A stretch of DNA of 64,000 nt from assembly GCF_056746865.1 (NCBI RefSeq), contig NZ_CM163382.1; one strand, given 5' to 3'. The notes beneath the pieces were generated by a model, which saw only the letters and a program-made list of their open reading frames with translations, was not told the origin of the DNA and did no database searches. Positions 18,185 through 38,221 of this stretch are shown here, one piece after another. A program made the translations under genes and the position numbers. Each line of letters starts with the position of its first letter. Positions within the stretch are counted from its first letter, which is position 1.

Positions 18185-18312
18185 CTGGTTGAGTATACAG
18201 TAGTAGACTTTGAGCGACGAAAGAAAAAGCTGTGTCTAGGGTCGCTCCCGAAAAACCGTATACCTCGACGGGCTGGCACAGCCACTACAGTAGAGGACGC
18301 TGAGGTGTGCGT

Positions 18313-21606: not shown

Positions 21607-21810
21607 TGGTACACCTCACTTAAATGGATTTGATGGGCGCACACAATACAGCAAAAAAAGTGAGAAGTTAAGTATTGACATGTGCGCACACATGATTTTA
21701 ATCTGTGCGCAAGTTTGGGTTGCATTGCTCAAATTAAGCAACGCCCCGCAGTGCTCGCAACACATGCAGGGCGTCTAACCACCAACGATAGAAAGCGTAT
21801 CGAGGTAGCT

Positions 21811-22014
21811 ATGTTAAATCATACCACACACCCGCAAGGGCGGGACTCGCACAACCTGAATAAATACATCTGGCGTTTTATCGCCCTGAGCACCGCACAA
21901 CCACGCGTAATACACATCGAGGCCGCCAGCGAACAGGAAGCCCGTCAGCAATCCCCGGCTGGCTGCGTGATGGTATTTACTGCCCGCATCCGTCAGGGGG
22001 AATACTATGCGTGA
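21811..22014 (+). CDS. Small hypothetical island protein (67 aa)
   Basis: ATG 21811 after GAGG; MLNHTTHPQGRDSHNLNKYIWRFIALSTAQ... Confidence 0.4.
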   Translation: MLNHTTHPQGRDSHNLNKYIWRFIALSTAQPRVIHIEAASEQEARQQSPAGCVMVFTARIRQGEYYA

Positions 22015-22264
22015 TGAACGATTTATTCTTCTGGAGCAAAAATTCAGTGAAGCGCCAAAAAATGAAATTGATGCTCTTTTGCATATCGCGAATATGCTAA
22101 AAGTAGCAACGTTCCTTATAGTTTCGAATCTGGAGCATGAAACGGCGTTAGATATACTGAACAGTGCTGTCGATTATTCTGAATATATTGCCGAGGATAA
22201 ATACAGGCAATTACCAGATTTGTTAGCCCATAAATATAAAGAAGAACCTCACACCGGGAAATAA
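22007..22264 (+). CDS. Hypothetical protein (85 aa)
   Basis: ORF in operon-like series upstream of primase gene. Confidence 0.45.
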   Translation: MRDERFILLEQKFSEAPKNEIDALLHIANMLKVATFLIVSNLEHETALDILNSAVDYSEYIAEDKYRQLPDLLAHKYKEEPHTGK

Positions 22265-22266
22265 AC

Positions 22267-22569
22267 ATGAAGAAGATTAAATTTACTGGCTTAAATGCCA
22301 GCGGACAGACTCACCCGAAAATCAGGATCGGGGATATTTTCCGGGATAAATATGGTGACAGCGTGGTTATTAATTCCGTGTATGAACGGCACATTACATA
22401 CCGCCGCGCAGGGTACGACTATGACTGTGTGATGCCCGTTCATCAGTTCCGGCGTGATTTTTCACTGGTATGTGCAGCACCACGCAGTAAGCCCACCAGT
22501 AAAGAGAAAGCACGGGCAAATATTCAGGTAATAAAGAACATGATTAACGCATTCAGGGGCAAGAAATGA
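22267..22569 (+). CDS. Hypothetical protein (100 aa)
   Basis: ORF overlapping primase start; tight spacing with neighbours. Confidence 0.45.
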   Translation: MKKIKFTGLNASGQTHPKIRIGDIFRDKYGDSVVINSVYERHITYRRAGYDYDCVMPVHQFRRDFSLVCAAPRSKPTSKEKARANIQVIKNMINAFRGKK

Positions 22570-24692
22570 AACGCGCACCGAATTTAAAGCACCAGCCGAA
22601 AGACAAAATGACGGAGGTGATTATCTTTGCGGGTAGTGATGCCTGGGCACATGCGAAAGAGTGGAGCGAATGGGCCGGAAAGCATATTGCGGCAGATGAT
22701 ACACATCCAGTTATTCTTGGACCGGAACAACTGGCGAGTCTGGCAGACACGCAAATCATCGACAAAGGGCGCTATTACGTGCGCGTTTATCGTGCTGGTG
22801 AAATATCAGAGCAGCACCTTACACAGATAGCGACACTGCTTGCAGTGGCGGGTGTGAAGGAGGCGCGTTGCTACCGCAGCTTTGTTGATCAGCAGCCGGA
22901 GGACTGGACACCGCGCATGGCTGGACTGAAGGATGATGCGGAACGCGGTAACAGTCTGGTGATCAACCTTCCGGCGAAGACAAATTTCACCGGAAATTAT
23001 GATGACGAATTAAAGCCTCGTGTTGAAAGTCGCGTCGATGGTGTTTTCTGGGTAACGCCCAAAGTGGACAAGCAGTCAGGCGAAATTATCCGGCCTGAGA
23101 CGTGGTTATGTTCTCCGCTTGAACTACTGGGAACAGGAACAATCGGCAAAGAGCATTACCGCGTGATGCGCTGGAAAAAACCAGCAAACCATGAGGTCAT
23201 TACAATGGCGGTCCCGTGCGGAGGCATTGGTGACCGTGACGGCTGGCGGTTGCTGAAAGACCACGGCCTTAACGTGACGACCAACGGCAAATACAGGGCT
23301 ATCTTGGCTGACTGGATGCAGTTAAGCGGAAACCATGAGGAATGGCAGTTAAGCACAACAACGGGGTGGCATTTTGGTGCGTACATCATGCCGGATGGTT
23401 CGATCATCGGTGAATCAGAGAAACCCATCCTGTTTACCGGAAAAACTGCCGCTGTTAATGGCTATTCCGTGGCGGGAACAGCGGAGGGCTGGCGCGATAC
23501 CGTGGCACGGCTGGCTGGTGGTAATCCGTCCATGATGCTGGGTGTGGCGGTATCGCTATCTGCACCATTAATCGGGCTGGTGGGTGCTGACGGCTTCGGG
23601 GTTCATCTTTTTGAGCAATCATCAGCAGGTAAAACCACCACACAGAACATTGCATCAAGTTTATGGGGAGAGCCGGACGCGCAACGGCTGACCTGGTACG
23701 GAACGGCGTTAGGTATCGCCAACGAGGCCGAAGCACATAATGACGGGCTGTTACCCCTGGATGAAATAGGCCAGGCCGGAAACGCACGGGAGGTGTCCAC
23801 GTCAGCCTATACGCTGTTTAACGGTTCCGGGAAATTACAGGGGGCGAAGGACGGCGGCAACAGGGAGATAAAACACTGGCGTACGGTGGCAATCAGCACC
23901 GGAGAAATGGACGTTGAAACATTCCTCAAAACGGAAGGGATAAAAATTAAAGCGGGACAGCTTGTCCGTCTGCTTAACGTACCGATGGAAAAGGCCTCGC
24001 AGTTTCACGAATACAGCACCGGAAAGGCGCACGCAGACGCGTTAAAAGATGCCTGGACAGAAAATCACGGGGCGGCAGGTCGTGAGTGGGTTAAATGGCT
24101 GGCAGGCCACCAGCAGGAGGCAAAGGACGCGGTAAGGGCATGTCGCGAGCGGTGGCGCAACCTGATACCGGAGAGCTACGGCGAGCAGGTTCACCGTGTG
24201 GGGGAAAGATTCGCCGTACTGGAGGCCGCGCTTGTGCTTTCCGGTCATGTTACAGGCTGGGATGTTCAGGCGTGCCGTGATGCAGTTCAGCATAACTTTA
24301 ATGCCTGGGTGAAGGAATTCGGCACGGGCAACAGGGAATTTAAACAGATGGTTGAACAGGCTGAGGCGTTTTTGTCGTCGTTCGGGTTCAGTCGATACCT
24401 TCCCTATCCAAACAGCGACGAGCGTGATTTACCGATTAAAGACCTTGCCGGATACAGAAAGGGGAGTATCAGAAACGAAGATGACGAGTTCCGTTTTTAC
24501 ACGTTCCCGCATGTGTTTGAGGGTGAGATAGCACAGGGATTTAATCCGTCTCACTTTGCCCGCGCGTTGAGTGCAGCCGGAATGCTGGAAGCGGGAGGCG
24601 ACCGCCGTTACAAGAAAAAGGCGCTCGGCAGGATTGGCGGGAAGCAACATATTTTTTACGTGCTGATGTTCCAGCCTGAAGCAGAAGATTAA
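22566..24692 (+). CDS. Satellite/prophage replication protein, DUF927-type primase-helicase-like, Walker A present
   Basis: 708 aa; Walker A-like FEQSSAGKTT; immediately followed by iterons. Confidence 0.75.
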   Translation: MKRAPNLKHQPKDKMTEVIIFAGSDAWAHAKEWSEWAGKHIAADDTHPVILGPEQLASLADTQIIDKGRYYVRVYRAGEISEQHLTQIATLLAVAGVKEARCYRSFVDQQPEDWTPRMAGLKDDAERGNSLVINLPAKTNFTGNYDDELKPRVESRVDGVFWVTPKVDKQSGEIIRPETWLCSPLELLGTGTIGKEHYRVMRWKKPANHEVITMAVPCGGIGDRDGWRLLKDHGLNVTTNGKYRAILADWMQLSGNHEEWQLSTTTGWHFGAYIMPDGSIIGESEKPILFTGKTAAVNGYSVAGTAEGWRDTVARLAGGNPSMMLGVAVSLSAPLIGLVGADGFGVHLFEQSSAGKTTTQNIASSLWGEPDAQRLTWYGTALGIANEAEAHNDGLLPLDEIGQAGNAREVSTSAYTLFNGSGKLQGAKDGGNREIKHWRTVAISTGEMDVETFLKTEGIKIKAGQLVRLLNVPMEKASQFHEYSTGKAHADALKDAWTENHGAAGREWVKWLAGHQQEAKDAVRACRERWRNLIPESYGEQVHRVGERFAVLEAALVLSGHVTGWDVQACRDAVQHNFNAWVKEFGTGNREFKQMVEQAEAFLSSFGFSRYLPYPNSDERDLPIKDLAGYRKGSIRNEDDEFRFYTFPHVFEGEIAQGFNPSHFARALSAAGMLEAGGDRRYKKKALGRIGGKQHIFYVLMFQPEAED

Positions 24693-24715: not shown

Positions 24716-24845
24716 TGCGGGTTATGCGGGTTATCCTGTGCATAAGTTAATTAACTGAATGATTAAAAAGGAAATTAATAACCCGCACGTAACCCGCAAA
24801 ACGGCAGTTATAACCCGCAAATGTGCGATTGTAACCCGCAAAATT
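24716..24845. repeat. Iteron cluster 1 (putative replication origin): convergent copies of TTGCGGGTTAT / ATAACCCGCAA
   Basis: gttgcgggttatgcgggttat then aataacccgcacgtaacccgcaaaacggcagttataacccgcaaatgtgcgattgtaacccgcaaa. Confidence 0.7.
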
Positions 24846-24902
24846 TCACTGTAAGAGTGTAAACAAGCGTAACTATCACGTTAAAACCGGAGAACAAACA
24901 GC

Positions 24903-25328
24903 ATGACGGCGCAAATATCAGCTTACGGGCGGCTGGTGGCTGACCCGCAGTTAAAGACCACCAGCAAGGGCACACAAATGGCGATGGCGAGTATGGCGGT
25001 CCCCCTTCCATGCAATCAGACAGATGACGGAACGGCGACGATGTGGTTATCCGTCCTGGCGTTTGGCAGACAGGCTGACGCACTGGCAAAACACCACAAA
25101 GGCGAACTGGTGAGCGTGGCCGGTAACATGCAGGTGAGCTGGTGGACGGGCCAGAACGGCGAAACGAGGCAGGGATGGCAGGTTATCGCAGACAGCGTAA
25201 TCAGTGCGCGAACGGCGCGACCGGGCGGCAAAAAAGGCCAGCAGGGGCAGGCTACTGATGCACTGAACAGGGCAAAGCAACAGACAGGCCAGCACGATGA
25301 TCCGTACGGGGACGGGATACCGTTTTAA
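24903..25328 (+). CDS. Single-stranded DNA-binding protein-like (OB-fold)
   Basis: 141 aa; pattern GRLVADPQLKTT...WLSVLAFGRQADALAKHHKGELVSVAGNMQVSWW...GETRQGWQV resembles SSB OB-fold core; Gly/Gln-rich tail ending DDPYGDGIPF like the SSB acidic tip. Confidence 0.55.
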   Translation: MTAQISAYGRLVADPQLKTTSKGTQMAMASMAVPLPCNQTDDGTATMWLSVLAFGRQADALAKHHKGELVSVAGNMQVSWWTGQNGETRQGWQVIADSVISARTARPGGKKGQQGQATDALNRAKQQTGQHDDPYGDGIPF

Positions 25329-25411: not shown

Positions 25412-25828
25412 CTAACTAGGTGTTTGCTGTTGTTCAATGTATTGGCGGATGATGGATATTGGCGCACCTCCGCAGCTACTGGCAAAATAGCTGGGACTCC
25501 ATAAAACGCCTTTGTAGTAATACCTGACTGCAATATCTGGTCGATCTCGTCGCAATAATCTACTCGATACGCCCTTGAGACTGTTCACCAGGGTGGATAT
25601 CGCCAATTTGGGAGGATAGTTAATTAGCAGGTGAACGTGATCTCGTTCTCCATCCATTTCAACCAGTTCAGCTTCAAAATCAGCACATACACTTGAAAAG
25701 TAAGTGCGTAGTTTTTCTATTGCGTCATGGTCAAAAATCTGGCGTCGGTACTTGGTAACAAAGACCAGGTGAACGTGCATCAGGAAGACACAGTGCCTTC
25801 CACGTCGGATATCGGTTTCTTTTTTCAT
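25412..25828 (-). CDS. tnpA: IS200/IS605 Y1 transposase TnpA
   Basis: Start at MKKETDIRRGRHCVFLMHVHLVFVTKYRR; HuH motifs HVHLV and DHVHLL; ends ...GGAPISIIRQYIEQQ. Confidence 0.88.
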   Translation of the reverse strand: MKKETDIRRGRHCVFLMHVHLVFVTKYRRQIFDHDAIEKLRTYFSSVCADFEAELVEMDGERDHVHLLINYPPKLAISTLVNSLKGVSSRLLRRDRPDIAVRYYYKGVLWSPSYFASSCGGAPISIIRQYIEQQQTPS

Positions 25829-25850
25829 AGGCCAAAGTATAATTTGGCAT

Positions 25851-27059
25851 ATGAAACGACTACAAGCTTTCAAATTCCAGTTAAGACCAAATGGAAAACA
25901 GGAGCGTGAAATGAGGCGCTTCGCGGGCGCATGTCGTTTCGTTTTCAATCGTGCTCTGGCGCTTCAGAATGAGAATCATGAGGCCGGGAACAAATATATT
26001 TCTTATGCAAAGATGACTTCCTGGCTGGTTGAATGGAAAAATGCTACTGAAACGCAATGGCTTAAAGATTCTCCCTCACAGCCATTGCAGCAGTCACTGA
26101 AAGACCTTGAGCGAGCCTACAAAAATTTCTTTCAGAAGCGTGCCGCTTTTCCCCGATTCAAAAAGCGGGGACAGCATGATGCATTCCGCTATCCGCAGGG
26201 TGTTAAGCTCGATCAGGAAAACAGCCGTATTTTTCTGCCGAAACTGGGCTGGATGCGCTACCGGAACAGCCGTCAGGTCACGGGTGTTGTGAAAAATGTC
26301 ACTGTCAGCCAGTCCTGCGGTAAGTGGTACATCAGTATTCAGACAGAAAGTGAAGTATCAACTCCGGTTCACCCTTCAGCATTAATGGTCGGGCTGGATG
26401 CTGGCGTGGCTAAACTCGCCACGCTGTCAGATGGCACGGTCTTTGAGCCTGTAAACAGTTTTCATAAAAACCAGAAGAAGCTGGCGAGACTTCAGCGCCA
26501 GTTAAGCCGCAAGGTTAAATTCAGCAACAACTGGCAGAAGCAGAAACGCAAAATACAGCGACTGCATTCCCGTATCGCAAATATCCGCAGGGACTACCTT
26601 CACAAAGTCACAACGACCATCAGCAAAAACCACGCAATGATAGTCATTGAGGATTTGAAGGTCAGCAACATGTCAAAGTCAGCCTCGGGTACGGTCAGCC
26701 AGCCGGGGCGCAATGTCCGGGCAAAATCAGGTTTAAACCGTTCGATACTGGATCAGGGCTGGTATGAAATGCGCCGTCAGCTTGAGTACAAGCAGCTCTG
26801 GTGTGGCGGTCAGGTGCTTGCTGTTCCGCCAGCGTACACAAGCCAGCGTTGCGCGTGCTGTGGTCATACAGCGAAAGAAAATCGCCTGTCACAAAGTCAA
26901 TTCAGATGCCAGGTATGTGGATATACAGCGAACGCCGATGTAAACGGCGCTCGTAACATTTTAGCGGCGGGGCACGCCGTTCTTGCCTGTGGAGGGATGG
27001 TGCAGTCAGGCCGCCCGTTGAAGCAGGAACCCACCGAAATGATTCAGGCGACAGCCTGA
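25851..27059 (+). CDS. tnpB: TnpB (OrfB) RNA-guided nuclease-like protein
   Basis: 402 aa; [17 protein letters not shown]...; C-terminal CxxC...CxxC zinc finger ([37 protein letters not shown]). Confidence 0.9.
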
Positions 27060-27265
27060 ACGTAGCAGGAATCCACGTCCTTCAGGGCGTGGAGGATGTC
27101 AAATATCAATGCGACGACTGGAATGTTCCAGGAAGGCACAGAGGCCACCGAAGCAACCGGATAATTTAGAAGACCTGAAACGGTCGCTTAAACGCACTGA
27201 AAAAGAAATGGGGATAGATGGGATCGGGAAATCAGTATGGCGTAACTACCAGAAGTAAGCACAGA
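27060..27265 (+). ncRNA. Putative omegaRNA (reRNA) scaffold at tnpB 3' end / IS right end
   Basis: By analogy with IS200/IS605 TnpB systems; structured region ending in hairpin GCCGGAGCAATCCGGC plus T-run. Boundaries not determined. Confidence 0.35.
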
Positions 27266-27289
27266 GCCGGAGCAATCCGGCTTTTTTTT
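27266..27289 (+). terminator. Hairpin plus T8 tract at IS right end
   Basis: gccggagcaatccggc followed by tttttttt. Confidence 0.5.
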
Positions 27290-27389
27290 GGCTGAAATCA
27301 ATCAATCTGTTTTTGTGATAGAAATATATTTATCTACCACTTTTTTCGATCAATAATGTGCATAATTTAGTCATTAAGAGGAAATTGCT

Positions 27390-27596
27390 GTGAATTGTAT
27401 TAACGACCTGAACACAGGCGATGTCAGAGGTGGTTCCGTTCATCTGGATGCACAGACCGTGATGCGCCTTAAGCAGTACAGAATCGACCATGTGAACAAT
27501 CACCCTGATCAGCCATTACCAGGCGTGGCGCAGATTGTCAGACATGCCGTAAACGCCTGGCTTAATCAGAATGGTTTTGCATCGGGGGGTGAGTAA
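27390..27596 (+). CDS. Small protein (68 aa), first gene of the novel operon; possible regulator
   Basis: GTG start 27390 preceded by AAGAGG; no recognisable family. Confidence 0.45.
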   Translation: MNCINDLNTGDVRGGSVHLDAQTVMRLKQYRIDHVNNHPDQPLPGVAQIVRHAVNAWLNQNGFASGGE

Positions 27597-27692
27597 TGAA
27601 TCGCTGGTACAGCATCAAAGCAGAGGGACGCCAATGTTATCTAACTCAGGTTTTATGAATTCTGACTCCCGATTCAAAATAGGAGGTTACTA

Positions 27693-30224
27693 ATGCCAGT
27701 CGTACCAACAGTATCCGGACGTCAGGTTGAGAGCCGTGGAGTTCAGTCAGCAGGCTTGCAGACGTTTTCTCAGCCAGGTATTGGTGATGCTTTTGTTCGG
27801 GCAGGGGCAGAGGCAATTGATGTTTTTGGTCAGGCAAAACAGCGTGCCAATATTGCCTTGATTCAGGAGGCATCCCTTAAACTCAGTCAGATAGGCAGTG
27901 ATCTGCTGAATAATCCTGAAACAGGATTGCTTAACCTGAAAGGGAAAAATGCTATTGGAAAAGGCCATGAGTATACACAGCAGTTTGATGCTCAGATCGA
28001 ACAACTGGCTATGTCGCTGCCGGATGAACAGGCTCGTAATGCTTTCATGCAGCAGGCGCAGCAGCAGCGTATTCAGTTCGCTACGCAGGCCGGGAGGTAC
28101 GAGATAGGGCAAATAAATGCCTACGAAGAAGGCCAGTTTCAGGCGACACTGCTGAATAATGGTAAAAATGCCTCAGCATTATATGGCGACAACGCAGCAT
28201 ACATATTGGCTAATACGCAAACTTTCCAGCAAATTGAGGATTACGGTATTGCGCATGGCTGGAGCGACGAGCAAATCCAGGCCAAGAAAATCGAGTTTAA
28301 AGAAGCAACAGCAAAAGCAACTGCTCAAAATGCTATTGGAGCAAACTATCTTCAGGTAAGACAGCAAAATGGCGAGTTAAGCGATACTGCTGCTGGATCT
28401 CGCCGTGCTGTAGCAGATAGTGGCTCTTCCGATCGTACCCGCGGTATACGCAACAATAACCCCGGCAATCTTGAATACAGCAAAACTAATCCGTGGATTG
28501 GGCAGACTGGTGATGATGGTCGCTTTGCCAAATTCGAAACCCCTGAACACGGTATTCGCGCGCTTGGTCGCAATTTGCTGTCGTATCAGCGTCAGGGTTA
28601 TGACACCATCAGCGAAATAATTAATCGCTGGGCACCGGCCAGTGATGATAATAAAACTGATGCTTATATACGGGCAGTATGTGCTCAGCTCGGTGTAACT
28701 CCTGACCAGCCGCTTGACGCATCAAATCCTGACACACTGAAATCTCTGTGCAAAGCAATTATTCATCATGAGCAAGGCAGTCAGCCGTACAGTGATCAGC
28801 AATTGGCCGCTGGCGTTAGTGCCGCACTGGGGCTTTCTCAGCTACCGACAAAAAATAAACGTTATACCGGTGTAGCCTGGTTCGATGCTTTAAGTGAATC
28901 AGATCAGGCCAGCGTGTTGCGACAGACGGATGCATTAGCCAGACAGCAGCAGGCTGAATATAGAACGATGCTCGAAAGCCGGGTTCGCGATGCAACGGCT
29001 GCGTATATGCGTGGCGTTGAATTTCCTAACCCGCCTGGTGAGGGTGAGTTCATTGCTGCTTATGGTGTCAGAGAAGGAAACCTGCGATATACCGAGTTCA
29101 GAAATTTGCAGATCGCCGGACAGTATATAGGCTCTTTCCGCAACATGCCGACAAGCAGCATTACCGCATATGTTGAGCAATTACGCCCGGATACTGGTGA
29201 GACAGGGGAGGGGTATGCGTCTCGTGCGGAGTTATTCGACCGGGTATCGGCGGCAGCCACGAAGGTAATAACCCAGAGGCAGAATAATCCGTTTAGTGCA
29301 GCGGTGGAAATCGGAGCCTATAAGCCGATCACCAGCAACAACCCTGACGACATCACTGCCGAGGTGGCTAACCGTTTCTCGTCGCAGGAAAGCTTACGCG
29401 CGTTGGGAATTAATGCCCCACTCCTCAACAGTGAAGAGGCGGCTGCGCTGGCACAGCAGGTGCGCGGCACTCAGAACGTTGACCAGACAATTAAACTGTT
29501 GCAGAGCATGGGGGAGAAGCTGCCTGCGCCAGCAATACGGCAGGTGGCATCTGTAATTGCTCCGAACAGTGCGGCAACAGCCTATTCTGCGCTGCTGCTG
29601 GGCACGCCGGATAACCAGTACGACAACACCAGGCCGACGATCCCATATAGTCAGTTCATCGGGTATAAGCCGACGATGAACAAGTACGACGTTGCAAAGG
29701 TTATTCTTTCCGGCGACCAACTACTGAATCCGACGAAGGCCATGAAGAATGCGGGCATAACTCCGGTACAGTTGCCGAGCGAAGATAAGATGAAAGACGC
29801 TTTCGACGAACAGGTAGGTAATGCATTTGCCCGTAACCCGCAGTTACGCCAGATCAGTTATAGCCTTTTCAAAGCCGCTTACGCAGGAATAGCTTATCAA
29901 TCTGGTGATGCCTCTACGGTAAGAACCAGTATGCCTGATACAGACATTGTAGCTGATGCCGTGAAGTATGCTACTGGCGGTATATACAATGGTTTTAATG
30001 GCGGCGACGTTGTAATGCCTTTTGGCATGGATAAATCTACTTTCAAAGATCGCTATACCACATCTGCGAAACAAGCACTGAAAGATGCCGGACTTAACGT
30101 AAATGCAGTGTCAAATTTCACGCCAGTTAATATCGGCAATAACCGGTATCGGCTTGTAAATGGTAGCGGACGCTGGGCAACAGATCCCAGAACCAATAAA
30201 GCTATTGTCGTGAGGGTTGAATAA
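27693..30224 (+). CDS. Large hypothetical protein P1 (843 aa), Q/A-rich, conserved-looking block RNNNPGNLEY...
   Basis: Strong RBS AGGAGG before ATG 27693; stop overlaps next start (TAATG). Confidence 0.8.
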   Translation: MPVVPTVSGRQVESRGVQSAGLQTFSQPGIGDAFVRAGAEAIDVFGQAKQRANIALIQEASLKLSQIGSDLLNNPETGLLNLKGKNAIGKGHEYTQQFDAQIEQLAMSLPDEQARNAFMQQAQQQRIQFATQAGRYEIGQINAYEEGQFQATLLNNGKNASALYGDNAAYILANTQTFQQIEDYGIAHGWSDEQIQAKKIEFKEATAKATAQNAIGANYLQVRQQNGELSDTAAGSRRAVADSGSSDRTRGIRNNNPGNLEYSKTNPWIGQTGDDGRFAKFETPEHGIRALGRNLLSYQRQGYDTISEIINRWAPASDDNKTDAYIRAVCAQLGVTPDQPLDASNPDTLKSLCKAIIHHEQGSQPYSDQQLAAGVSAALGLSQLPTKNKRYTGVAWFDALSESDQASVLRQTDALARQQQAEYRTMLESRVRDATAAYMRGVEFPNPPGEGEFIAAYGVREGNLRYTEFRNLQIAGQYIGSFRNMPTSSITAYVEQLRPDTGETGEGYASRAELFDRVSAAATKVITQRQNNPFSAAVEIGAYKPITSNNPDDITAEVANRFSSQESLRALGINAPLLNSEEAAALAQQVRGTQNVDQTIKLLQSMGEKLPAPAIRQVASVIAPNSAATAYSALLLGTPDNQYDNTRPTIPYSQFIGYKPTMNKYDVAKVILSGDQLLNPTKAMKNAGITPVQLPSEDKMKDAFDEQVGNAFARNPQLRQISYSLFKAAYAGIAYQSGDASTVRTSMPDTDIVADAVKYATGGIYNGFNGGDVVMPFGMDKSTFKDRYTTSAKQALKDAGLNVNAVSNFTPVNIGNNRYRLVNGSGRWATDPRTNKAIVVRVE

Positions 30225-32284
30225 TGTCTGATGTTTTTTCTTTGGCTCCAGAAGGTCAGGCATGGATTGACGACAAAACAGTTGCCAACCCAGCAAGGCC
30301 AGAAGACTACGATCCGACTCCCTTCCAGGGTTCAGGTACTGCACTTTTGAGCGGCGTGGCGGAGGGGGCTCTCGGTCTCGCGCAGTCTGCCGTCGGATTC
30401 AGCAAGCGTCTGATTAGCGATCCGGCATTTACCGCAGACGTGGCACCGACAGTTAATATTTTTCGGGAGATGTTCCCTGATGCTGACAAAACACTGAATG
30501 ATACATACGACACGATCGGAAAACAGTTACAGGATGCCCGCAGCTATGTGAAGCCTGATGCAGGCAGCCAGGGAATGGCGGCTGAGGTATTAAATGAGCT
30601 TGGTAAATTTGTTCCTGCAATCGGAACAACTATGTTTGGTGGTCCGCTCATCGGCGCTGCTACAGCCTTCAGTTCTACGTATGAGCAGTCCTATCAGGAT
30701 TTTAAAGGGAAGGGAGTAGACGAGGCTACAGCGCGTAACCTGGCAACGCAGCAGAGCCTTTTCAATGCTGTGGGTATGGCCTTACCCGCTGCCGTCGGCA
30801 CCACACTGGCAACGCGCATTGCCTCAGGTGTGGCAATCAACACCGGATTCGGTGGACTGAACCGTTACTCAGTAGGCGCAACACTGGAGGAAAAAGGCTA
30901 CACGGAGATGGCAAAACAGTATCGGGTATTTGACGGTCAGGCGATGTTAGTCGATGCCGTTTTAGGCGGGGTCTTTGGTGGCGTTCATCACCTGACTACC
31001 CATAATAACCATGATGGTACAGAGTCGAACATTTCTGCAGAAGAAATAAAATCAACTTTTGGTGAACATTATCAGCAATCTCCTGATGGTAACATTGAGT
31101 CAATGGTTCGTGATTTATCTGATTCAGGAGTAATAGAACTTATTAATGAACCAGCAATAAAAAATAGTGATGGAGAAATACTTCTGAATAAAGGTCATGT
31201 GACAGTAGCTTCCGGAAAAGAACCAATAATAAGAATAAATATTAATGGATTAAAAGACCATGAAGAACTGTTAGAAACCCTTCATCACGAGGCGCTTCAT
31301 CTTGAGCAGCGCCATTACCCTGACTGGAAGGCCAGAAAGCTAGCTAATGCTGTACTTAAATCTGCAAACAAGCATTCTGACTATCCTGAATTTGCATATG
31401 GGATGTCACAATATTATGAATATAAGAAAAGGGGTGAGTACCCTGAAACATATCCTGAGTGGTTGTACGCTGAAGAAGTTGCCGCACATGCAGTAAATCC
31501 ATCTCTAAAGACAAGCGTTTCATCATGGGAAAAAATTATTTCAGGTTTTAAAGCCTATATATTCAGATACAGTGGTATTCAGGTTGGAACCGTTACACCT
31601 GAGCAGTTACGGTTACTCGTAAGTATGCGTCTTCGCAATATGAAACTGGAAGCCGCAGTAGAAAAAGTTTTTGGTATCCGGGCGAGGGAAAGAATAAAAC
31701 CAAGCGATATTGATGCAGCCCACATTTTGAATGAGGGGCTTCATTACGATATTGAATCGTCACCAGTGCTTCATACCAGCAATGAGAGCATCAACAGCCA
31801 TGTTGACGCCATGGATGAAGCATACAGGCAACTTAATGATGGTCAGCCTGTAAATGTTGGGGGGATGGCGCGAGGGCTTGATGGTCCATTGCGATCAGAT
31901 ATATCTGATACTTACCAAGAGCAATACCATGAAATACAAAAGGTTTTTGAAGAAAATGGTGTCAGATACGAAACATCATCAGAGCCAATTAGTGAATCGC
32001 CTGTCCCTCGTGCTGAAAGTGCTTTCTCATCGGCTGGTGAACACAGAGGGGACATCAGCGTTGATCCAGATACAGGGCAGGTTCTCTCATCCAACAGCTA
32101 TGACCTTATGGCTGCCAGGGACATGGCTGTTGCCAATCCTGAGCTGACTATAGCTCACCCGGAAACCGGAAACCCGACAAAACTTTCTGATCTCCTGGCT
32201 GAGTTGGATGAACAGATTAAGACAGTCCAGAACGAATCGAAGGTTTATTCTGTAGCAGCAGCGTGCTTCTTGAGGAACCCATAA
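30224..32284 (+). CDS. Large hypothetical protein P2 (686 aa) with glycine-rich hydrophobic segments and an HExxH motif
   Basis: HEALH at nt 31286-31300; N-terminal third has repeated Gly/Ala-rich hydrophobic stretches; TAATG coupling at both ends. Confidence 0.8.
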   Translation: MSDVFSLAPEGQAWIDDKTVANPARPEDYDPTPFQGSGTALLSGVAEGALGLAQSAVGFSKRLISDPAFTADVAPTVNIFREMFPDADKTLNDTYDTIGKQLQDARSYVKPDAGSQGMAAEVLNELGKFVPAIGTTMFGGPLIGAATAFSSTYEQSYQDFKGKGVDEATARNLATQQSLFNAVGMALPAAVGTTLATRIASGVAINTGFGGLNRYSVGATLEEKGYTEMAKQYRVFDGQAMLVDAVLGGVFGGVHHLTTHNNHDGTESNISAEEIKSTFGEHYQQSPDGNIESMVRDLSDSGVIELINEPAIKNSDGEILLNKGHVTVASGKEPIIRININGLKDHEELLETLHHEALHLEQRHYPDWKARKLANAVLKSANKHSDYPEFAYGMSQYYEYKKRGEYPETYPEWLYAEEVAAHAVNPSLKTSVSSWEKIISGFKAYIFRYSGIQVGTVTPEQLRLLVSMRLRNMKLEAAVEKVFGIRARERIKPSDIDAAHILNEGLHYDIESSPVLHTSNESINSHVDAMDEAYRQLNDGQPVNVGGMARGLDGPLRSDISDTYQEQYHEIQKVFEENGVRYETSSEPISESPVPRAESAFSSAGEHRGDISVDPDTGQVLSSNSYDLMAARDMAVANPELTIAHPETGNPTKLSDLLAELDEQIKTVQNESKVYSVAAACFLRNP

Positions 32285-35040
32285 TGAAACAGGCATGTGT
32301 GGAAGCTATTGCGCAGACACTTGGTCGCCAGCCAAAGGCTGATGAGCTGAAAAATATTGAAGATCGTATCAAAGAAGCTGTGCAGCATGTGCACAGAAAG
32401 AATGCCAAAGAAGGCAAAAGTGGTATTCCTGATGCTCAAACATACATGGATGCAGCAGAACTGGTACGCCAGCGTGTGGTTCATGATGTGTACAAGAAAA
32501 GACAGCGTGTTGCCCAGAATGCGATCGCCATCAGTAAAATTACTGACACTCTCGATGCTAACATCCCGCCTGATCAGCAGACACCTGTTAATTTGCAGCA
32601 GTTTATTTTTGCTGGCCGACGATCGAGAGACAAAGCTGATATCTCCGTTACTTCTGCTGAAGAACTTGCAATTGGGGCATATCAGGACTGGTCCCGTCAG
32701 CTCAGTGCTGAACTTCTAAAAGCAGGTGATGACGTCCGCAAATTCTTCGAGCAGAGCAGGGCGCTTGGAGAGCAGCGGTTTCGGAGTGTATTCGACAGGC
32801 AGGCGGCAAAGTCTGCACAACTCCAGATCCTGAAAGAAATATATGGCGAAGATACCGGGAATCCCCTGGCGAAGAAAATTGCACAGATTTGGAAGGATGT
32901 AACAGGCCGTGTTCGTCATGAGATGAACGACAATGGCTTTGACATAGGCCTGCGAGAAGACTGGCATACGCCATATGTGGATGATGCTGACCTTATTCGC
33001 AATGCCGGGCGCGAAGAATGGCTGGCATCGTTACCAGTGGCAGAGCAAGCTACAGCACGTCTTTCAGGTCGCCAGCCACCGATTGAGTTTGCCCGCCAGA
33101 AATGGGTTGATGACGCTTACAACACGCAGGATCGCAGCAATTACGTTAATCCTGACGGCAGCATTATGAATGACGTCGAGTACCGTCAGGCACTGGAAGC
33201 GATCTTTGAAACGAAGGCCACTGATGGGGCAAACAAAATTGAGCCTGGTACATTTATGGGAGCCGGAGGAATAAAGAGCCGTGGTTCTCAGCACAGGGTG
33301 ATGGCGTTCAAGGATGCGCAGTCACACTTCGCCTATATGGAACGATACACTCAGCAGCCGCTGGTGGGGGTGATGATGTCGCACCTGCAATCATCATCCA
33401 GGGATTTGGGCGTCGTTAAAGCCTTTGGTCCGGACGCCGAAAGAAACTTTTCCCTGGTACTGGATCGCATCTATAAGCGCGCAGTAACAGGCGGGAAACG
33501 CAAAAAAGAAATGGAGGATGAGGCCAAATTAGTTGCCCGTATGTTCAACTCAATGGCTGGCCTAAATGGTGTCGCTTCATCGAGTGTGTTCTCTTCAGCA
33601 GTTGGTGGTCTGCGTAACCTGATGACCAGCGCCATGCTTGGCACCAGCGTACTGACAGCAACCAGCGACCAGGCAATTATGCGGGCAAATGCGCAGGCGC
33701 TGGGCTTTACCCGTGGTGGAATGCGGCTTTCCGTTAACACTATCAAAAACCTGTTTAGTGGAGATGCCAAAAAGGCGAATGCTGAACTCGGTCTGCTGGT
33801 GGATTCACATGCTGCTGTGGTTTCGAAAATGGGCGGGTTTGACTTGTCTCGCGGCATAACTGGCTGGTTCGCAGAGAAGACACTGAAGTGGTCCGGGCTG
33901 ATCGCTATGGACCGCGCAAACAAAGCGTCGTTTGGTCTCCTGATGTACAAAAACATTGGCGAGCTGACCAGAAAATTTAAGACGCTGGACGATATGAAAG
34001 GAACCGATAAAACCATTCTGGCTAACAAGGGATGGAGCAATGAGGACTGGGCCATCATGGCAGCGGCAGAACTCAGGCCGATGACTACTGCCGGGCATAT
34101 GGGGATGACGCCAGACGCGATTTACGCTGTGCCCGATAACGTAATAGCCGACATTATGGCAGACCGTATTACCCGGATTCGTGCCGGGAGTGAAAAGGCA
34201 CTGGCAGCCCTTGGAGATCTCCCTCCAGAACGCCTGAAACGGATGAAAGAAGCATTCGACGCTGAGGCTGAGCAGACCATCACGCGCATGATTCGTAATG
34301 CACGCGCTGAAGCAGCCCAGAAATTGCTGGGAATTACGCACGGTGAGATGACCAATGCTGTGACCACCGCTACGGGTATTGATACATATGCCCGTGATGA
34401 TGCTGGCGAGTTAATGAAGAGCTTCATGCTCTTCAAAACAACCCCATTTGCTGGATTTCGGCAACTTGTTAACAGAACACGGGATTTGGACACCGTTCCG
34501 GCCATTAAATTTCTGGCCTCATATATCGGGGGAACAACTCTTGCTGGTATGTTTGCGATCCAGATGAACAGTTTGTTAAATGGTAATGATCCGCTGGATA
34601 TGACAAAACCAACCACATGGGTTCAGGCTTTACTGAAAGGTGGTTCGTTCGGTATCTACGGTGATTTTATTTTCCAGGACCATACGCAATATGGCTCCAG
34701 CATCGGTGCCACTATGGGTGGCCCTGTGTTGAGCTTTGCAGAGCAGTTAACAAAATTACTGATTACTAACCCACAGAAGGCTCTACAGGGTGAAGAAACA
34801 TCATTCGGTGCCGATGCACTGAAAACAGCCCGCATGATCACCCCATTCGCAAACCTGTGGTATGCGAAAGCGATAACCAATCACCTGATATTGCAACAAC
34901 TTCAGGAGATGGCAAACCCTGGTTACAATGATCGAGTAAGGGACCGCGCGCAACGGGAGTTCGACATAACGAGTTGGTGGGAACCGGGTGCTATTGCGCC
35001 ACGTAGAGCACCGGATTTTGGAAAGGCGGTGGGGAACTGA
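32284..35040 (+). CDS. Large hypothetical protein P3 (918 aa)
   Basis: ORF 32263..35040; start taken at MKQACVEAIAQ (ATG 32284 overlapping P2 stop); Gly-rich hydrophobic segments toward C-terminus. Confidence 0.8.
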   Translation: MKQACVEAIAQTLGRQPKADELKNIEDRIKEAVQHVHRKNAKEGKSGIPDAQTYMDAAELVRQRVVHDVYKKRQRVAQNAIAISKITDTLDANIPPDQQTPVNLQQFIFAGRRSRDKADISVTSAEELAIGAYQDWSRQLSAELLKAGDDVRKFFEQSRALGEQRFRSVFDRQAAKSAQLQILKEIYGEDTGNPLAKKIAQIWKDVTGRVRHEMNDNGFDIGLREDWHTPYVDDADLIRNAGREEWLASLPVAEQATARLSGRQPPIEFARQKWVDDAYNTQDRSNYVNPDGSIMNDVEYRQALEAIFETKATDGANKIEPGTFMGAGGIKSRGSQHRVMAFKDAQSHFAYMERYTQQPLVGVMMSHLQSSSRDLGVVKAFGPDAERNFSLVLDRIYKRAVTGGKRKKEMEDEAKLVARMFNSMAGLNGVASSSVFSSAVGGLRNLMTSAMLGTSVLTATSDQAIMRANAQALGFTRGGMRLSVNTIKNLFSGDAKKANAELGLLVDSHAAVVSKMGGFDLSRGITGWFAEKTLKWSGLIAMDRANKASFGLLMYKNIGELTRKFKTLDDMKGTDKTILANKGWSNEDWAIMAAAELRPMTTAGHMGMTPDAIYAVPDNVIADIMADRITRIRAGSEKALAALGDLPPERLKRMKEAFDAEAEQTITRMIRNARAEAAQKLLGITHGEMTNAVTTATGIDTYARDDAGELMKSFMLFKTTPFAGFRQLVNRTRDLDTVPAIKFLASYIGGTTLAGMFAIQMNSLLNGNDPLDMTKPTTWVQALLKGGSFGIYGDFIFQDHTQYGSSIGATMGGPVLSFAEQLTKLLITNPQKALQGEETSFGADALKTARMITPFANLWYAKAITNHLILQQLQEMANPGYNDRVRDRAQREFDITSWWEPGAIAPRRAPDFGKAVGN

Positions 35041-35354
35041 TGACGAGAGATAAAATTGAATATATTGCTTCTCTTAAATATGAAGCTGAGAAATGGAGAA
35101 GGATTGGCGGGTGGGGAACATTAATATCACTCTCTGCTTTACTTATAGACTCCTGGTTCAGACATATTGATGCAGCATCATTACTTTTTGAATCAGCAGT
35201 ACTTGGTGGATTCATTTGCTGTTGGGGTGGTAATTATGATCGGGCGTCCAAACATAAGAGAGAACTTGACGCGATATGTTTTGCTTTATTCGGTAAGGAT
35301 TACGAAAGTTCTGACCTTGATATAATTGAATTCAACAAAACGGAACTATCGTGA
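35040..35354 (+). CDS. Small predicted membrane protein P4 (104 aa)
   Basis: ATGA overlap with P3 stop; two hydrophobic segments (GTLISLSALLIDSWF, AVLGGFICCWGG). Confidence 0.6.
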   Translation: MTRDKIEYIASLKYEAEKWRRIGGWGTLISLSALLIDSWFRHIDAASLLFESAVLGGFICCWGGNYDRASKHKRELDAICFALFGKDYESSDLDIIEFNKTELS

Positions 35355-35362
35355 CATGTCAC

Positions 35363-35388
35363 AGGCCGCTTTCGCGGCCTTGTTTTTA
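35363..35388 (+). terminator. Rho-independent terminator closing the P1-P4 operon
   Basis: aggccgctttcgcggcct followed by tgttttt, 9 bp after the P4 stop. Confidence 0.6.
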
Positions 35389-36054
35389 ACGAATGCCACC
35401 GCCGCCCGGGCGGGAATTCGCAGATAAAAAAGCACGCTGCACGGTTTTATTAATACTTATACCATTAGGATTGATCCTTCAATGGACAATCCTTCCATCG
35501 TGTGGCCAGCCATTCATATTCTTTGTCTTTTCTTCAGTATCGGCTTTGCATCTTCTACACCCTGAAAGATGTCGTTTTATGGTGTATCTGATGATTTATT
35601 CCCTAACAATAGATATTCGAAAAATTAATCAGTTAAAACAATTATTTGGATAATTTCAGGTAAAACTATCTTAATCTTCTGGTGGATCTCAATGCGTAGT
35701 GACGGTATCGGGATTAAGGGCGTGGATATTCGCGATATATGCCGCTACACCCCTCAACAGTAATAGATATGAGCTTTTCACGCTCTCCTTTCACTGCTGA
35801 GAACGGCAACAACGTGCCACAGGAACGCGCTGTAATCGATTCTGACGCACTTAATTGCGTTGGGTAATGGTTTTTGCCAGCCTGTGGGGGTAACTCTGTT
35901 TTATGAGGCTTTGGCTATAGTGCAAAAATACACTTTGTCTTGCCTCTCAATTTGATGAGACTGGAACGACAACAGGACAGACCACCAGCAACAGTTACCG
36001 TATTCAGCCGTTCTGTGGCACCAGTGGAACTATCAACCCCTGCTTTCAGCAATG

Positions 36055-36212
36055 TGTTTGCGGGTTATTTTGGGGCGTTTGCGGGTTATTTGGGATGTTT
36101 TGCGGGTTATGTGATGCTTGAATAATGAACAGTGTATTTTGCAACATATTGATACTAAAGAACAAAAAATAGTTAGCATACTAAGATAACCCGGTAACCC
36201 GCATAACCCGCA
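36055..36212. repeat. Iteron cluster 2: three direct TTGCGGGTTAT copies then three inverted ATAACCCGC copies
   Basis: Same 11-mer family as cluster 1 at 24716-24845, about 11.3 kb away. Confidence 0.65.
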
Positions 36213-36699
36213 CTGTTTTGTATATATATACGAAAAATTGCATTCAGGAGGGGGGGAGCGAAATCCCTACAATCCATTGCTTATGGGACCGCCCGCCTCG
36301 TCAAATTTTTACACCCGCGAAATAAAAAAATACTTCACGCTGGTGGGCATGATGCTGATATGGGAGGCTTCCATAACGCCACCATTCGGAACTATGCAAA
36401 TCTGCATAGAAAAGGGGATGCCTGATACAATACCCTCGCCCGATAAAATCACACCGATAAACTCATCTGCCACGAGTAGAAAGAGCGAACGAACCCGATA
36501 CGCAGTAATGCTTGTCGGGTACAGCTTTTTAAGGCGGCTGTAGATATCAGGCCATCCGTGATCATCCACCAGCGAGATAGCCGATAACGATGACGCATAA
36601 CCCTCAAGCGAGGGATAAATGTGTATAGAAATGTGTATAGAATTGATTTTAGAACTCGCAGGATTCGCGCTATTACTGGCCTTGTGTGATGTTGTATTG

Positions 36700-36717
36700 T
36701 TCCCTTCGCCCGCTCCA
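36700..36717. repeat. tRNA 3'-end remnant / right att repeat (TTCCCTTCGCCCGCTCCA)
   Basis: 18 nt consistent with T-arm/acceptor stem/CCA of tRNA-Gly (glyU-like) as I recall it; contains the 15-bp repeat shared with 16792-16806. No complete tRNA in the window. Confidence 0.55.
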
Positions 36718-36949
36718 ATTTATCTTCACCTCATCAACCTGCCATTTTTGTTGTATCTGATTTTCTATATTATCTTAATTCAATCGCTTCAGACTTTTCG
36801 CAATCGCCGTAATACTTCCCCATTTTTTTGTAAATAAAAGCGTTTACGCAATGCAATCCATTTGTAACAACCCAGGTAAAATACCTTATTTTCAAGTTGT
36901 TAAATAAGTGGTTATCTACGCTTTTAACAAACGATTGATGGAATCTTTT

Positions 36950-38221
36950 ATGAAAGGGAAATCTACATTAACTCTTCTGCTCGCTGGTATATTTTCATGC
37001 TGCACATGCCAGGCGACAGGGGCAGAAGTGACGAGTGAATCTGTATTTAACATTCTTAATTCCACGGGGGCAGCAACTGATAAAAGTTATTTATCGTTAA
37101 ATCCAGATAAGTATCCTAATTATCGTCTTCTGATTCACTCAGCCAAATTAAAAAATGAAATAAAGAGCCACTATACCAAAGACGAAATTCAAGGATTGTT
37201 AACATTAACAGAAAATACACGAAAGTTAACGTTGACGGAGAAACCATGGGGAACATTTATTCTTGCTTCTACTTTCGAAGATGACAAAACAGCGGCAGAA
37301 ACCCACTATGATGCTGTCTGGCTGAGGGATAGTTTATGGGGCTATATGGCATTAGTATCAGATCAGGAAAATAGTGTAGCCGCAAAAAAGGTTCTGCTCA
37401 CTCTGTGGGATTATATGTCTACGCCAGACCAGATTAAACGGATGCAGGACGTCATTAGCAACCCAAAACGACTGGATGGTATTCCTGGGCAAATGAATGC
37501 TGTGCATATCCGATTTGACAGCAACTCCCCCGTGATGGCAGATGTGCAGGAAGAAGGCAAGCCGCAGCTGTGGAACCATAAACAAAATGATGCGTTAGGT
37601 CTTTATCTTGATCTCCTTATACAAGCAATCGACACTGGTACTATTAACGCTGAAGATTGGCAAAAAGGTGACCGATTAAAATCGGTTGCGCTGCTGATTG
37701 CTTATCTGGATAAAGCCAATTTCTATGTTATGGAAGATTCCGGAGCGTGGGAAGAAGATGCCAGATTAAACACATCTTCCGTTGCACTGGTGACCTCTGG
37801 ACTGGAACGTTTGTCGAACTTACTCTCGAAGAAAGACTCTGTTTTTGTCTCTGATTTACTACGCGAAGCTAAAGCTAATGAACTGGATGAACCACTTTCA
37901 ACAACGAGGTTGAACCACCTCATAGATAAAGGTTATGAAAGAATAACGTTACAGCTTGATTTAGGGGGAGAATCCCCAGGTTATCTGGAAAAAGATAAAC
38001 ATTACAGAGAAGCCGATGCGGCTTTACTTAATGTTATTTATCCTGCAAATCTTTCAAAGATAAATACCAGAAGAAAAGAGCAAGTTCTAAAAATAGTTAA
38101 AAAACTAGCAGGTCCGTATGGTATAAAAAGATACGAGAAGGATAATTATCAGTCGGCAAATTTTGGTTCAATGATATTAAAACCGATACCGATCAAAATT
38201 CACATGCAAAAAGAGAAATGA
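36950..38221 (+). CDS. Putative secreted protein/lipoprotein (423 aa) at the ETT2 island edge
   Basis: ORF 36908..38221; start taken at MKGKSTLTLLLAGIFSCCTCQA (signal peptide, possible lipobox). Confidence 0.55.
   Translation: MKGKSTLTLLLAGIFSCCTCQATGAEVTSESVFNILNSTGAATDKSYLSLNPDKYPNYRLLIHSAKLKNEIKSHYTKDEIQGLLTLTENTRKLTLTEKPWGTFILASTFEDDKTAAETHYDAVWLRDSLWGYMALVSDQENSVAAKKVLLTLWDYMSTPDQIKRMQDVISNPKRLDGIPGQMNAVHIRFDSNSPVMADVQEEGKPQLWNHKQNDALGLYLDLLIQAIDTGTINAEDWQKGDRLKSVALLIAYLDKANFYVMEDSGAWEEDARLNTSSVALVTSGLERLSNLLSKKDSVFVSDLLREAKANELDEPLSTTRLNHLIDKGYERITLQLDLGGESPGYLEKDKHYREADAALLNVIYPANLSKINTRRKEQVLKIVKKLAGPYGIKRYEKDNYQSANFGSMILKPIPIKIHMQKEK

Follow-up and report, generated by a model that had tools for sequence, protein, structure and literature searches.

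What are three large, translationally coupled genes doing in the cargo of a chromosomal island? The question is raised by positions 27390-35388 of a 64,000-nucleotide stretch of contig NZ_CM163382.1 (RefSeq assembly GCF_056746865.1), here called the window, in which an original prediction, made from the DNA letters, saw an unassigned five-gene operon encoding either a defence or anti-defence system or co-opted phage ejection-type proteins. Comparison with phages and related islands points to the latter: the operon holds the DNA-ejection module of a Uetakevirus podophage, standing where a phage-inducible chromosomal island (PICI) carries its capsid and packaging genes. The five open reading frames (ORFs), P0 to P4, have the places and sizes originally stated:

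27390-27596, plus strand: P0, 68 amino acids (aa), GTG start
27693-30224, plus strand: P1, 843 aa
30224-32284, plus strand: P2, 686 aa
32284-35040, plus strand: P3, 918 aa counted from the ATG; the open frame starts at a GTG at 32263
35040-35354, plus strand: P4, 104 aa

The TAATG stop/start overlaps between P1 and P2 (30222-30226) and between P2 and P3 (32282-32286) are indeed present, as is a strong ribosome-binding site, AGGAGG, 8 nt upstream of the P1 start, and a terminator scan recovers the GC-rich hairpin and T-run at 35363-35388. The last junction had been misread as ATGA: P3 and P4 overlap by one base in TGATG, with the stop codon at 35038-35040 and the start codon at 35040-35042.

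Profile and translated searches identify P1, P2 and P3 as homologues of gp15, gp16 and gp17, the internal core or ejection proteins of the Uetakeviruses epsilon15 and phiV10. In these podophages gp15-gp17 sit above the portal, inside the capsid, and on expulsion they take the DNA across the cell envelope. Published work places gp15 and gp16/gp17 in the core and injection apparatus of epsilon15 and regards them as counterparts of the ejection proteins of T7 and P22 (PMC12391199, PMC8954989). P1 and P3 match the PHROG virion families phrog_992 and phrog_684 over their full lengths (E = 4e-289 and E = 2.5e-295, respectively) and P2 matches phrog_1145. With tblastn, P1 shows 79% aa identity to epsilon15 gp15 over 843 aa and P3 89% to gp17 over 917 aa, while P2 is 83% identical to gp16 for aa 1-277 and 74% for aa 480-686, its middle section being replaced. 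The order P1-P2-P3 is that of gp15-gp16-gp17 in Salmonella phage epsilon15, and it recurs in phiV10 and in five prophages. Residues 249-403 of P1 match a cell-wall hydrolase domain, as found in the endolysin 7q47_A (E = 2.3e-16) and in Gp29 of 9vvp_L (E = 5.5e-39); P1 thus probably has a peptidoglycan-degrading domain, as gp15 does.

The collinearity of P1-P3 with epsilon15 gp15-gp17, and the full-length PHROG matches of P1 and P3, bear out the reading as ejection-type proteins. They also overturn the claim that no virion family is matched and the label 'unassigned', full-length homology to podovirus internal core proteins being an outcome that the prediction itself had named beforehand as telling against it. 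The label arose because PADLOC, NCBIfam and Pfam are all blank on these genes: NCBIfam gives no match for any of the five products, PADLOC-DB v2 none at E <= 0.01 and Pfam none for P0, P1, P2 or P3. RefSeq calls all five 'hypothetical protein'. The Gly/Ala-rich segments noticed in P2 and P3 do exist, and those of gp16 are invariant in the P2/gp16 alignment, but the hydrophobicity ascribed to them is only mild. On the Kyte-Doolittle scale no 19-residue window of P1-P3 averages as much as 1.4, a value attained by a segment of P4 alone.

How these genes came to lie in an island is recorded at the two ends of the phage-derived segment:

27263-27389, plus strand: terminator (27263-27284), then AT-rich promoter and leader, common to classic PICIs (terminator scan)
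27596-27658, plus strand: remnant of a PICI head-protease/major-capsid fusion gene, about its first 10 codons (MNRWYSIKAEG), then non-homologous to the stop (compared with L017 from 16087 onward)
27625-27692, plus strand: 3'-end remnant, the last ~70 nt, of a T7-gp14-family core gene; left end of the phage segment, carrying the P1 ribosome-binding site
35350-35424, plus strand: phage-type terminator region (hairpin 35363-35380 and T-run); right end of the phage segment

The natural comparison is with L017, a compact classic E. coli PICI that encodes an integrase, an AlpA-type helix-turn-helix protein, an Icd-like protein, DUF4222, a primase, a single-stranded DNA-binding protein (SSB) and the leader with P0. 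After P0, L017 has a protease/capsid fusion (phrog_133), a cosN-like sequence, GGGCGGCGAC, and a DUF1441 gene (phrog_141). An identification of the DUF1441 protein as Rpp was considered; it is without a sequence match in the PDB, and is therefore called TerS-like only. A search with the segment from replicon to P0 recovers P0 and the leader before it, at about 89% identity, from other islands, where the pair stands directly 5' of the head-protease/major-capsid fusion gene. The leader region of the sister island L002 (19977-20328) has 87% nt identity to L017 15767-16118, and P0 itself has 91% aa identity to the L017 ORF directly 5' of the fusion and matches phrog_4934 (E = 1.9e-31). No counterpart of P0 is present in the Uetakevirus prophages compared, nor is one found by tblastn against phages. 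P0 is accordingly the leader gene of the PICI 'late' operon, derived from the island rather than from a phage. Its equation with epsilon15 gp3, likewise of 68 aa and likewise 5' of a late operon, was rejected since the two lack similarity and P0 belongs to the PICI backbone.

The switch from PICI to phage falls at about 27625, within the junction sequence GGTACAGCATCAAAGCAGAGGGACGCCAATGTTATCTAACTCAGG. Homology of the island to complete Uetakevirus prophages runs from the P1 start codon to the P3 stop. Upstream of P1, the gp14 remnant agrees at 98.6% identity with the corresponding 3' end in gp14-family genes of phiV10-like prophages. Downstream, a 75-bp stretch comprising the last part of P4 and the terminator shows 97-99% identity to the phage terminator located after the ejection genes of phiV10 and of L007, a phiV10-like prophage. 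A 7.8-kb phage segment (~27625-35424) has thus replaced the capsid-protease/capsid fusion, cos and small-terminase-like block of a PICI, and the cassette, having taken over that operon's slot, now lies behind the terminator, promoter and leader gene that belonged to it. The junctions are identical in both integrase lineages examined (see below). A lambda-like cosN was not found in the island's non-coding DNA, a search that also disposed of a suspected lambda-like cos site after P4, and PHROG and NCBIfam searches together with sister-locus annotation yielded no DUF1441/TerS-like ORF in the island. The non-coding region at the right end of the island has 44-47-bp pieces in common with the right end of L017. 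The satellite- or PICI-like island context of the original prediction therefore holds, but not the generic accessory slot, the cassette being in the position of the PICI capsid/packaging operon. Similarly, its five genes are real but are better described as a three-gene phage module preceded by an island-derived leader, P0, and followed by a phage-derived, variable small membrane protein, P4.

Could the three genes simply belong to a prophage? The island is bounded by a perfect 14-bp direct repeat, CTTCGCCCGCTCCA, which has two copies in the window against 0.02 expected by chance:

16792-16805, plus strand: left direct repeat (attL core), exact 14-mer with which tRNA-Gly ends (3') in sister genomes
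36704-36717, plus strand: right direct repeat (attR core), exact 14-mer

Intact copies of the island measure 19,132 bp. PHROG and NCBIfam matches of the backbone ORFs and the annotation of sister loci reveal no capsid, portal, terminase, tail or lysis gene in it. As the island has no morphogenetic genes of its own beyond the cassette, P1-P3 do not lie in a prophage. Among 5426 complete E. coli genomes, 36 have the island-type P2-P3, and so do six IMG/VR contigs, every one of these loci being an island fragment; neither it nor the P2 insert described below occurs in any prophage of the 5426 genomes or in any of 50,697 phage records. Those E. coli genomes in which the match to P2-P3 DNA is no better than 76-80% contain complete Uetakevirus prophages, with the three genes flanked by a T7-gp14-family core gene on one side and the tailspike on the other. 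The same setting is seen in prophages of Ca. Erwinia dacicola and Pseudocitrobacter faecalis, and a genome-contig scan beyond E. coli gave two extra loci only, both complete prophages. The cassette DNA of the island is 20-25% diverged from that of all known phages, and the cassette is therefore old.

The cassette has not decayed. P0-P3 are intact, over 7.3 kb, in all nine island copies sampled, and the ratio of non-synonymous to synonymous diversity (piN/piS) is 0.23-0.30 for P1 and 0.20 for P3, and falls to 0.06-0.08 in those parts of P2 that are homologous to gp16. The P2 insert has seven synonymous and no non-synonymous segregating sites and, since it is found nowhere but in islands, its constraint acts in the island. 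The cassette is under purifying selection. Two integrase lineages share it: cassette and replicon recur between yicC and dinD, there joined to a different integrase/regulatory module, and at this second site the att repeat is a 12-bp match only that could be due to chance. In this second lineage (L016, 17452-18919) the AntA-type antirepressor seen at tRNA-Gly has given way to a GIY-YIG nuclease and a Rha-family regulator; the regulatory or induction module has thus been swapped while replicon and cassette were kept. The intact genes, the low piN/piS and the identical junctions in two integrase lineages together led us to discard a decaying prophage remnant as an explanation.

P1 falls into two parts of different affinity:

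27693-29227, plus strand: P1 N-terminal part, ~510 aa, phiV10-type, including the hydrolase domain; a recombination patchwork
29228-30224, plus strand: P1 C-terminal part, ~330 aa, epsilon15-type, 72-90% identical to epsilon15 gp15 and 10-35% to phiV10 p18

The N-terminal part has 92-100% aa identity to phiV10 or to prophage L007 in most 60-column blocks and 63-75% elsewhere. The boundary is one that the phages themselves respect. Between epsilon15-type and phiV10-type phages, the first ~510 residues of gp15 are 65-87% identical but the last ~330 only 10-35%; gp16 and gp17 are 27-31% identical, whereas gp14 and portal are 78-80% identical. The N-terminal part of gp15 is hence conserved between phage types and its C-terminal part co-varies with gp16/gp17. 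P1 is a chimera made at this natural module boundary, with a phiV10-type N-terminal part and an epsilon15-type C-terminal part. Among the nine island copies the 5' 1.5 kb of P1 is a patchwork of blocks 64-93% identical between copies, whereas P2-P3 are mostly 97-100% identical with a few blocks at 95-96%. Within single island copies, blocks of P1 5' DNA are 99-100% identical to phiV10 or to the resident prophage L007. Exchange with circulating phages is therefore recent and recurrent, ending at the P1 junction. The P1 C-terminal part, P2 and P3 constitute an epsilon15-type lineage of their own, found only in this type of island.

The replaced middle section of P2 and the gene after P3 are the other places where the island departs from its phage relatives:

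30995-31693, plus strand: orphan insert of P2, aa ~258-490, with an HExxH motif within HHEALHLEQRH (alignment with phage gp16)
Genes of the slot after gp17: window 35040-35354; L001 19326-19520; L005 19345-19485; L007 26989-27285; L013 8814-9155

The insert, of ~230 residues, takes the place of the Pro/Ala-rich coiled-coil linker of phage gp16. An exhaustive scan of 1.84 billion cluster representatives gave no homologue, only a 74-residue fragment of P2 itself; a word-indexed protein search returned nothing, P2 itself included. Nothing significant was found among PDB sequences, and a single-sequence AlphaFold model gave no usable fold (predicted local distance difference test score, pLDDT, 44). 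By tblastn, the 50,697 phage records contain no homologue beyond one weak partial match, 37% over 59 residues (E ~2e-3), to virion-packaged 'DarB-like antirestriction' proteins of Ralstonia phages. This match is a lead and not evidence; if real, it would be in keeping with a cargo domain that enters the cell along with the DNA. The HExxH motif too can be taken only as a lead.

P4 is 82% identical in aa sequence to the ORF after gp17 in the epsilon15-type prophage of Ca. Erwinia dacicola and, with one hydrophobic segment, is a small membrane protein. Each phage or island variant has unrelated small hydrophobic proteins, of 46-113 aa, in this slot, and in two of the nine island copies P4 is altered, being replaced in one and cut by IS1 in the other. 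Such a hot slot is typical of moron or superinfection-exclusion genes.

What, then, might the island gain from an ejection module? Our best reading, in which we place about as much belief as doubt, is that a PICI-derived satellite of phiV10-type Uetakeviruses equips helper capsids with a distal ejection module of its own. The island would be a satellite, or a satellite-derived element, of these phages, and its operon would be expressed when the helper is active. The phage-matched N-terminal part of P1 might then dock on the conserved gp14/portal base of the helper while its C-terminal part recruits the island's own P2 and P3, so that capsids built by the helper would be loaded with the distal ejection module of the island. 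P2, with its HExxH-containing insert, would be delivered to the next cell along with the DNA. The pay-off could be entry to cells that block the helper's module, effector delivery, interference with the helper, or a mix of these.

A link to such a helper is suggested, indirectly, by the recent allele exchange and by co-occurrence. A second gp15-like locus is present in 16 of 36 island genomes and in 368 of 5390 others (odds ratio 10.9, p = 6e-10), counts made by hand from a listing of 60 rows with a statistic that ignores phylogeny. In E. coli AH19D088 (NZ_CP196239.1), whose island lies at tRNA-Gly, the second locus is a complete phiV10-like prophage near yfgI, L007, already met above. The same prophage encodes an endosialidase-type tailspike (L007 29675-32794), which makes it a K1-capsule-specific Uetakevirus.

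Several observations tell against the proposed loading of helper capsids, among them the way in which those counts were obtained. AH19D088 is the one genome with both elements that was examined, and there the 5' part of island P1 is 99% identical to phiV10 and 91% to the co-resident prophage. Outside the arms of the cassette, the sole DNA common to island and phages is a 116-bp stretch of 70% identity within BRO-N genes, with no terminase or pac-like DNA in common. The island has lost the packaging determinants of its PICI relatives, lacking a small terminase, an Rpp-like gene and a cos site, so that no transfer route is visible; two copies of it (38.3 kb) would nearly fill a 39-40-kb headful, but this is arithmetic and not evidence. 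The HExxH motif amounts to five residues in an orphan domain for which no fold was obtained, and the selection signal in P1 may partly be imported from phage alleles through recombination. Finally, we infer from sequence the excision, replication and packaging of the island as well as the entry of P1-P3 into virions.

The same features can be turned round, and the module seen as poison. On that account, which we think rather unlikely, the island is defence-like: an epsilon15-type distal module, mismatched to phiV10-type progeny, would enter capsids by way of the matching P1 N-terminal part, make the progeny poorly infectious and limit their spread, and the patchwork in P1 would mirror an arms race. 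The operon that was replaced interferes with the helper in classic PICIs (PMC6739421), the P1 N-terminal part does track phage alleles, the two types of distal module are, at 10-35% identity, plausibly incompatible, and the loss of every packaging determinant would suit an element that no longer travels by capsid. A poison, however, needs no three large, complete, co-adapted proteins under purifying selection throughout, and the P1 C-terminal part, P2 and P3 look self-sufficient, being 72-90% identical to the working epsilon15 set; nor does any PADLOC model match. This account is in any case compatible with the loading of helper capsids, as satellites commonly do both.

It is improbable that the cassette is merely the inert product of one illegitimate recombination event that joined a PICI to a Uetakevirus prophage in the same cell, hitch-hiking without a role for the island. 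Both junctions do lie inside genes (the gp14 and protease/capsid remnants), as an accident would give, the element is rare among the 5426 genomes, its packaging genes are gone, and the copy in the window has been further damaged by an insertion sequence and a rearranged left junction. Against this must be set the integrity of P0-P3 in every copy sampled and the piN/piS values, with the insert, in particular, unable to import selection from the phage side. The cassette has, moreover, been kept in two lineages with different integrases and, from its divergence from every known phage, is old.

Still less to be expected is that the island serves as a module reservoir, from which phiV10-type phages take an alternative distal module by a double crossover between the 1.5-kb P1 5' arm and a 60-75-bp terminator arm. 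Phage-identical flanks are present on both sides of the cassette, and recent exchange is demonstrable in the left arm. Yet exchange is confined to the 5' part of P1 and never runs across the junction, the right arm is very short, and no prophage or phage in the sets searched carries island-type P2-P3 or the insert. Defence, toxin or secretion cargo unrelated to virions, the leading reading of the original prediction, is scarcely credible, since a location towards the attR end of a satellite-like island, a frequent place for defence genes in PICIs, and the lack of Pfam or NCBIfam assignments are outweighed by full-length homology to phage virion proteins, the absence of any PADLOC match and a place in the morphogenesis-operon position rather than in an accessory slot.

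If the module does equip a satellite, to which kind of satellite is the island related? Its backbone comprises the following:

16931-18184, plus strand: P4-type tyrosine integrase (phrog_1, E = 7e-79; NF007246, E = 2.5e-98, 329 bits, under the curated cutoff of 434 bits)
18229-18296, plus strand: int-alpA RNA motif RF02996 (Rfam, 46.9 bits against a gathering score of 35.8)
19338-19535, plus strand: AlpA-like excisionase/regulator, 65 aa (phrog_2790 and phrog_66, 'excisionase and transcriptional regulator', E ~2e-11)
19611-20435, plus strand: AntA/AntB family antirepressor-type gene (PHROG anti-repressor, E = 2.4e-36; RefSeq names in sister loci)
20428-20985, plus strand: BRO-N antirepressor-type gene (PHROG anti-repressor, E = 5e-55; RefSeq names in sister loci)
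21682-24692, plus strand: replication block of Icd-like gene (NF033153), 85-aa ORF, DUF4222 and primase/helicase
22566-24692, plus strand: DUF927 primase/helicase (phrog_1139 DNA primase, E = 4e-174)
24766-24852, plus strand: iteron cluster 1, putative origin, TAACCCGCAAA four times at 21-nt spacing
24903-25328, plus strand: SSB (TIGR00621 ssb), 92% aa identity to the SSB of PICI L017
25354-27103: IS200/IS605-type insertion, TnpA at 25412-25948 on the minus strand and TnpB at 25851-27059 on the plus strand (ORFs; breakpoints of the alignment of window with L002)
36056-36110, minus strand: iteron cluster 2, TTTGCGGGTTA three times at 21-nt spacing, the cluster-1 11-mer inverted

The flanking iteron clusters of the original prediction are thus real, and consist of the same 11-mer in opposite orientation, a pairing reminiscent of the ori and crr of phage P4. 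They lie 11 kb apart and enclose the SSB gene, the insertion and the whole cassette, and more copies are found near 36188-36215. The adjoining insertion sequence with TnpB was also correctly seen, as an IS200/IS605 element with TnpA and TnpB. It takes the place of 984 bp of the sister islands, encoding a ProQ/FinO-family protein, a 138-aa Ant-like ORF and most of a PerC protein; the P0 promoter and leader, just 3' of the element, were left untouched.

The closest relatives are PICIs of the EcCICFT073 type, which have an integrase, AlpA, a primase, a capsid-morphogenesis gene, an Rpp/TerS-like gene and a cos site, and of which L017 is our example. Besides its SSB and P0, the island has in common with L017 and its type an Icd-like protein (84% aa identity), DUF4222, the int-alpA RNA motif, gene order, size class and integration between direct repeats. 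It differs from L017 in having podovirus ejection genes where the protease/capsid fusion, cos and the TerS-like DUF1441 gene have gone, in a primase of the DUF927 type that is only 40% identical over its N-terminus, and in its extra antirepressor genes. The island is also larger, 19 kb against ~11 kb, and as candidate helper it has a podovirus of the headful type instead of a lambdoid phage of the cos type. From the PICI core set of SatelliteFinder it has integrase, AlpA and primase but neither capsid-morphogenesis gene nor packaging determinant, and there are no tail or holin genes. Three of the five core components define a 'Type C' element, which the SatelliteFinder authors do not accept as a PICI (PMC10085698).

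Other satellites resemble the island in single respects. Capsid-forming PICIs (cfPICIs) encode their own structural proteins and steal only tails. They provide a precedent for a PICI-type satellite encoding its own diverged virion proteins (bioRxiv 10.1101/2022.09.08.507074), but cfPICIs encode capsid, portal, adaptor, connector and terminase, where the island has none of these and only internal ejection proteins. Phage P4 likewise has a P4-type integrase, an AlpA-like regulator, a primase/helicase and two separated iteron clusters, and the antirepressor-type genes of the island could derepress a helper prophage; its candidate helper, however, is another kind of phage, and among 10 backbone and three extra ORFs there are no PHROG matches to Psu, Delta, Sid or epsilon of the P4 module.

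With the Uetakeviruses epsilon15 and phiV10, finally, whose gp15-gp17 have functional analogues in T7 gp14-gp16 and P22 gp7/gp20/gp16, the island shares the order, translational coupling and collinear homology of three genes and the gp15 hydrolase domain. It differs in that these genes lie outside a phage, with the gp14 partner reduced to a ~70-nt remnant and no portal, capsid, tail or terminase, as well as in the inter-type chimera of P1, the orphan insert in place of the P2 linker and the 20-25% divergence of the DNA. We found in the literature no PICI or other satellite with ejection, injection or internal virion proteins, and no satellite of a Uetakevirus. The protein family and the backbone lineage are known, then, while the combination and the strategy that it implies are not described. 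It is tentatively possible, though we would sooner doubt it, that this is the first known satellite encoding the DNA-ejection proteins of its helper. It would be a PICI derivative that has abandoned the hijacking of capsid size and packaging and refits podovirus capsids with a delivery module of its own, with a chimeric gp15, of helper-type base and satellite-type tip, as adaptor and gp16 as the vehicle that takes an orphan HExxH domain into the recipient cell.

Some features of the island and its surroundings vary independently of the cassette. About 300 bp between the BRO-N and Icd-like genes (window 21438-21737) do not align to L002, which at that spot has two small minus-strand ORFs, one of the YlcI/YnfO family and one hypothetical, making this a second small variable spot in the backbone. 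The PerC-family gene 5' of the P0 leader (L002 19734-19959; also L006 and L008-L013) is annotated as frameshifted in every copy examined and is deleted in the window; so uniform a frameshift could mean that the gene is a long-standing pseudogene or functions in a shorter form, or it could be an artefact of annotation. phiV10 too encodes a PerC-family activator, PhiV10p34.

Neither ARAGORN nor Rfam finds a tRNA at the left end of the island in the window, because the left junction has been rearranged (16115-16810, with a breakpoint at about 16792-16798). There the left repeat runs into the type I-E CRISPR-Cas gene cas5e, the two overlapping by 7 bp (CTTCGCC), at a point 63 nt from the cas5e start. 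A CRISPR array, cas2, cas1 and cas6e lie left of the junction, and cas7e, casB, casA and cas3 are missing at that place. None of the 5426 complete E. coli genomes has this cas5e/left-repeat junction, which looks like a strain-specific inversion or rearrangement that split the cas operon, possibly mediated by the integrase at a pseudo-att site. Directly to the right of the island, a glycoside hydrolase family 15 gene (36908-38221) is followed by the ETT2 (E. coli type III secretion system 2) island. The hydrolase ORF has 437 aa in the window against 536 aa in L002 and may be truncated or frameshifted; many ETT2 genes of L002 are annotated as pseudogenes.

To our knowledge, the well-studied satellites (P4-like elements, PICIs, cfPICIs and PICI-like elements, PLEs) all exploit the regulation, capsid size or packaging specificity of the helper, or steal its tails. 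Were the loading of helper capsids by the island's module to prove true, it would add a new point of attack, namely what is loaded in the capsid and expelled into the next cell, and satellites would manipulate the entry step besides assembly and packaging. The island would then offer a test case for the recruitment of podovirus core proteins, with the boundary between N- and C-terminal parts of gp15, at about residue 510, set by natural chimeras, and equally for ejection proteins that carry cargo domains into cells and for superinfection barriers that act on the ejection module. The finding bears on annotation as well, as virus-prediction pipelines already call the island viral (the six IMG/VR entries). 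And should the mechanism be wrong, the island would still be a clean, dated example of the capture of a phage module by a satellite, with gene flow continuing between the two.

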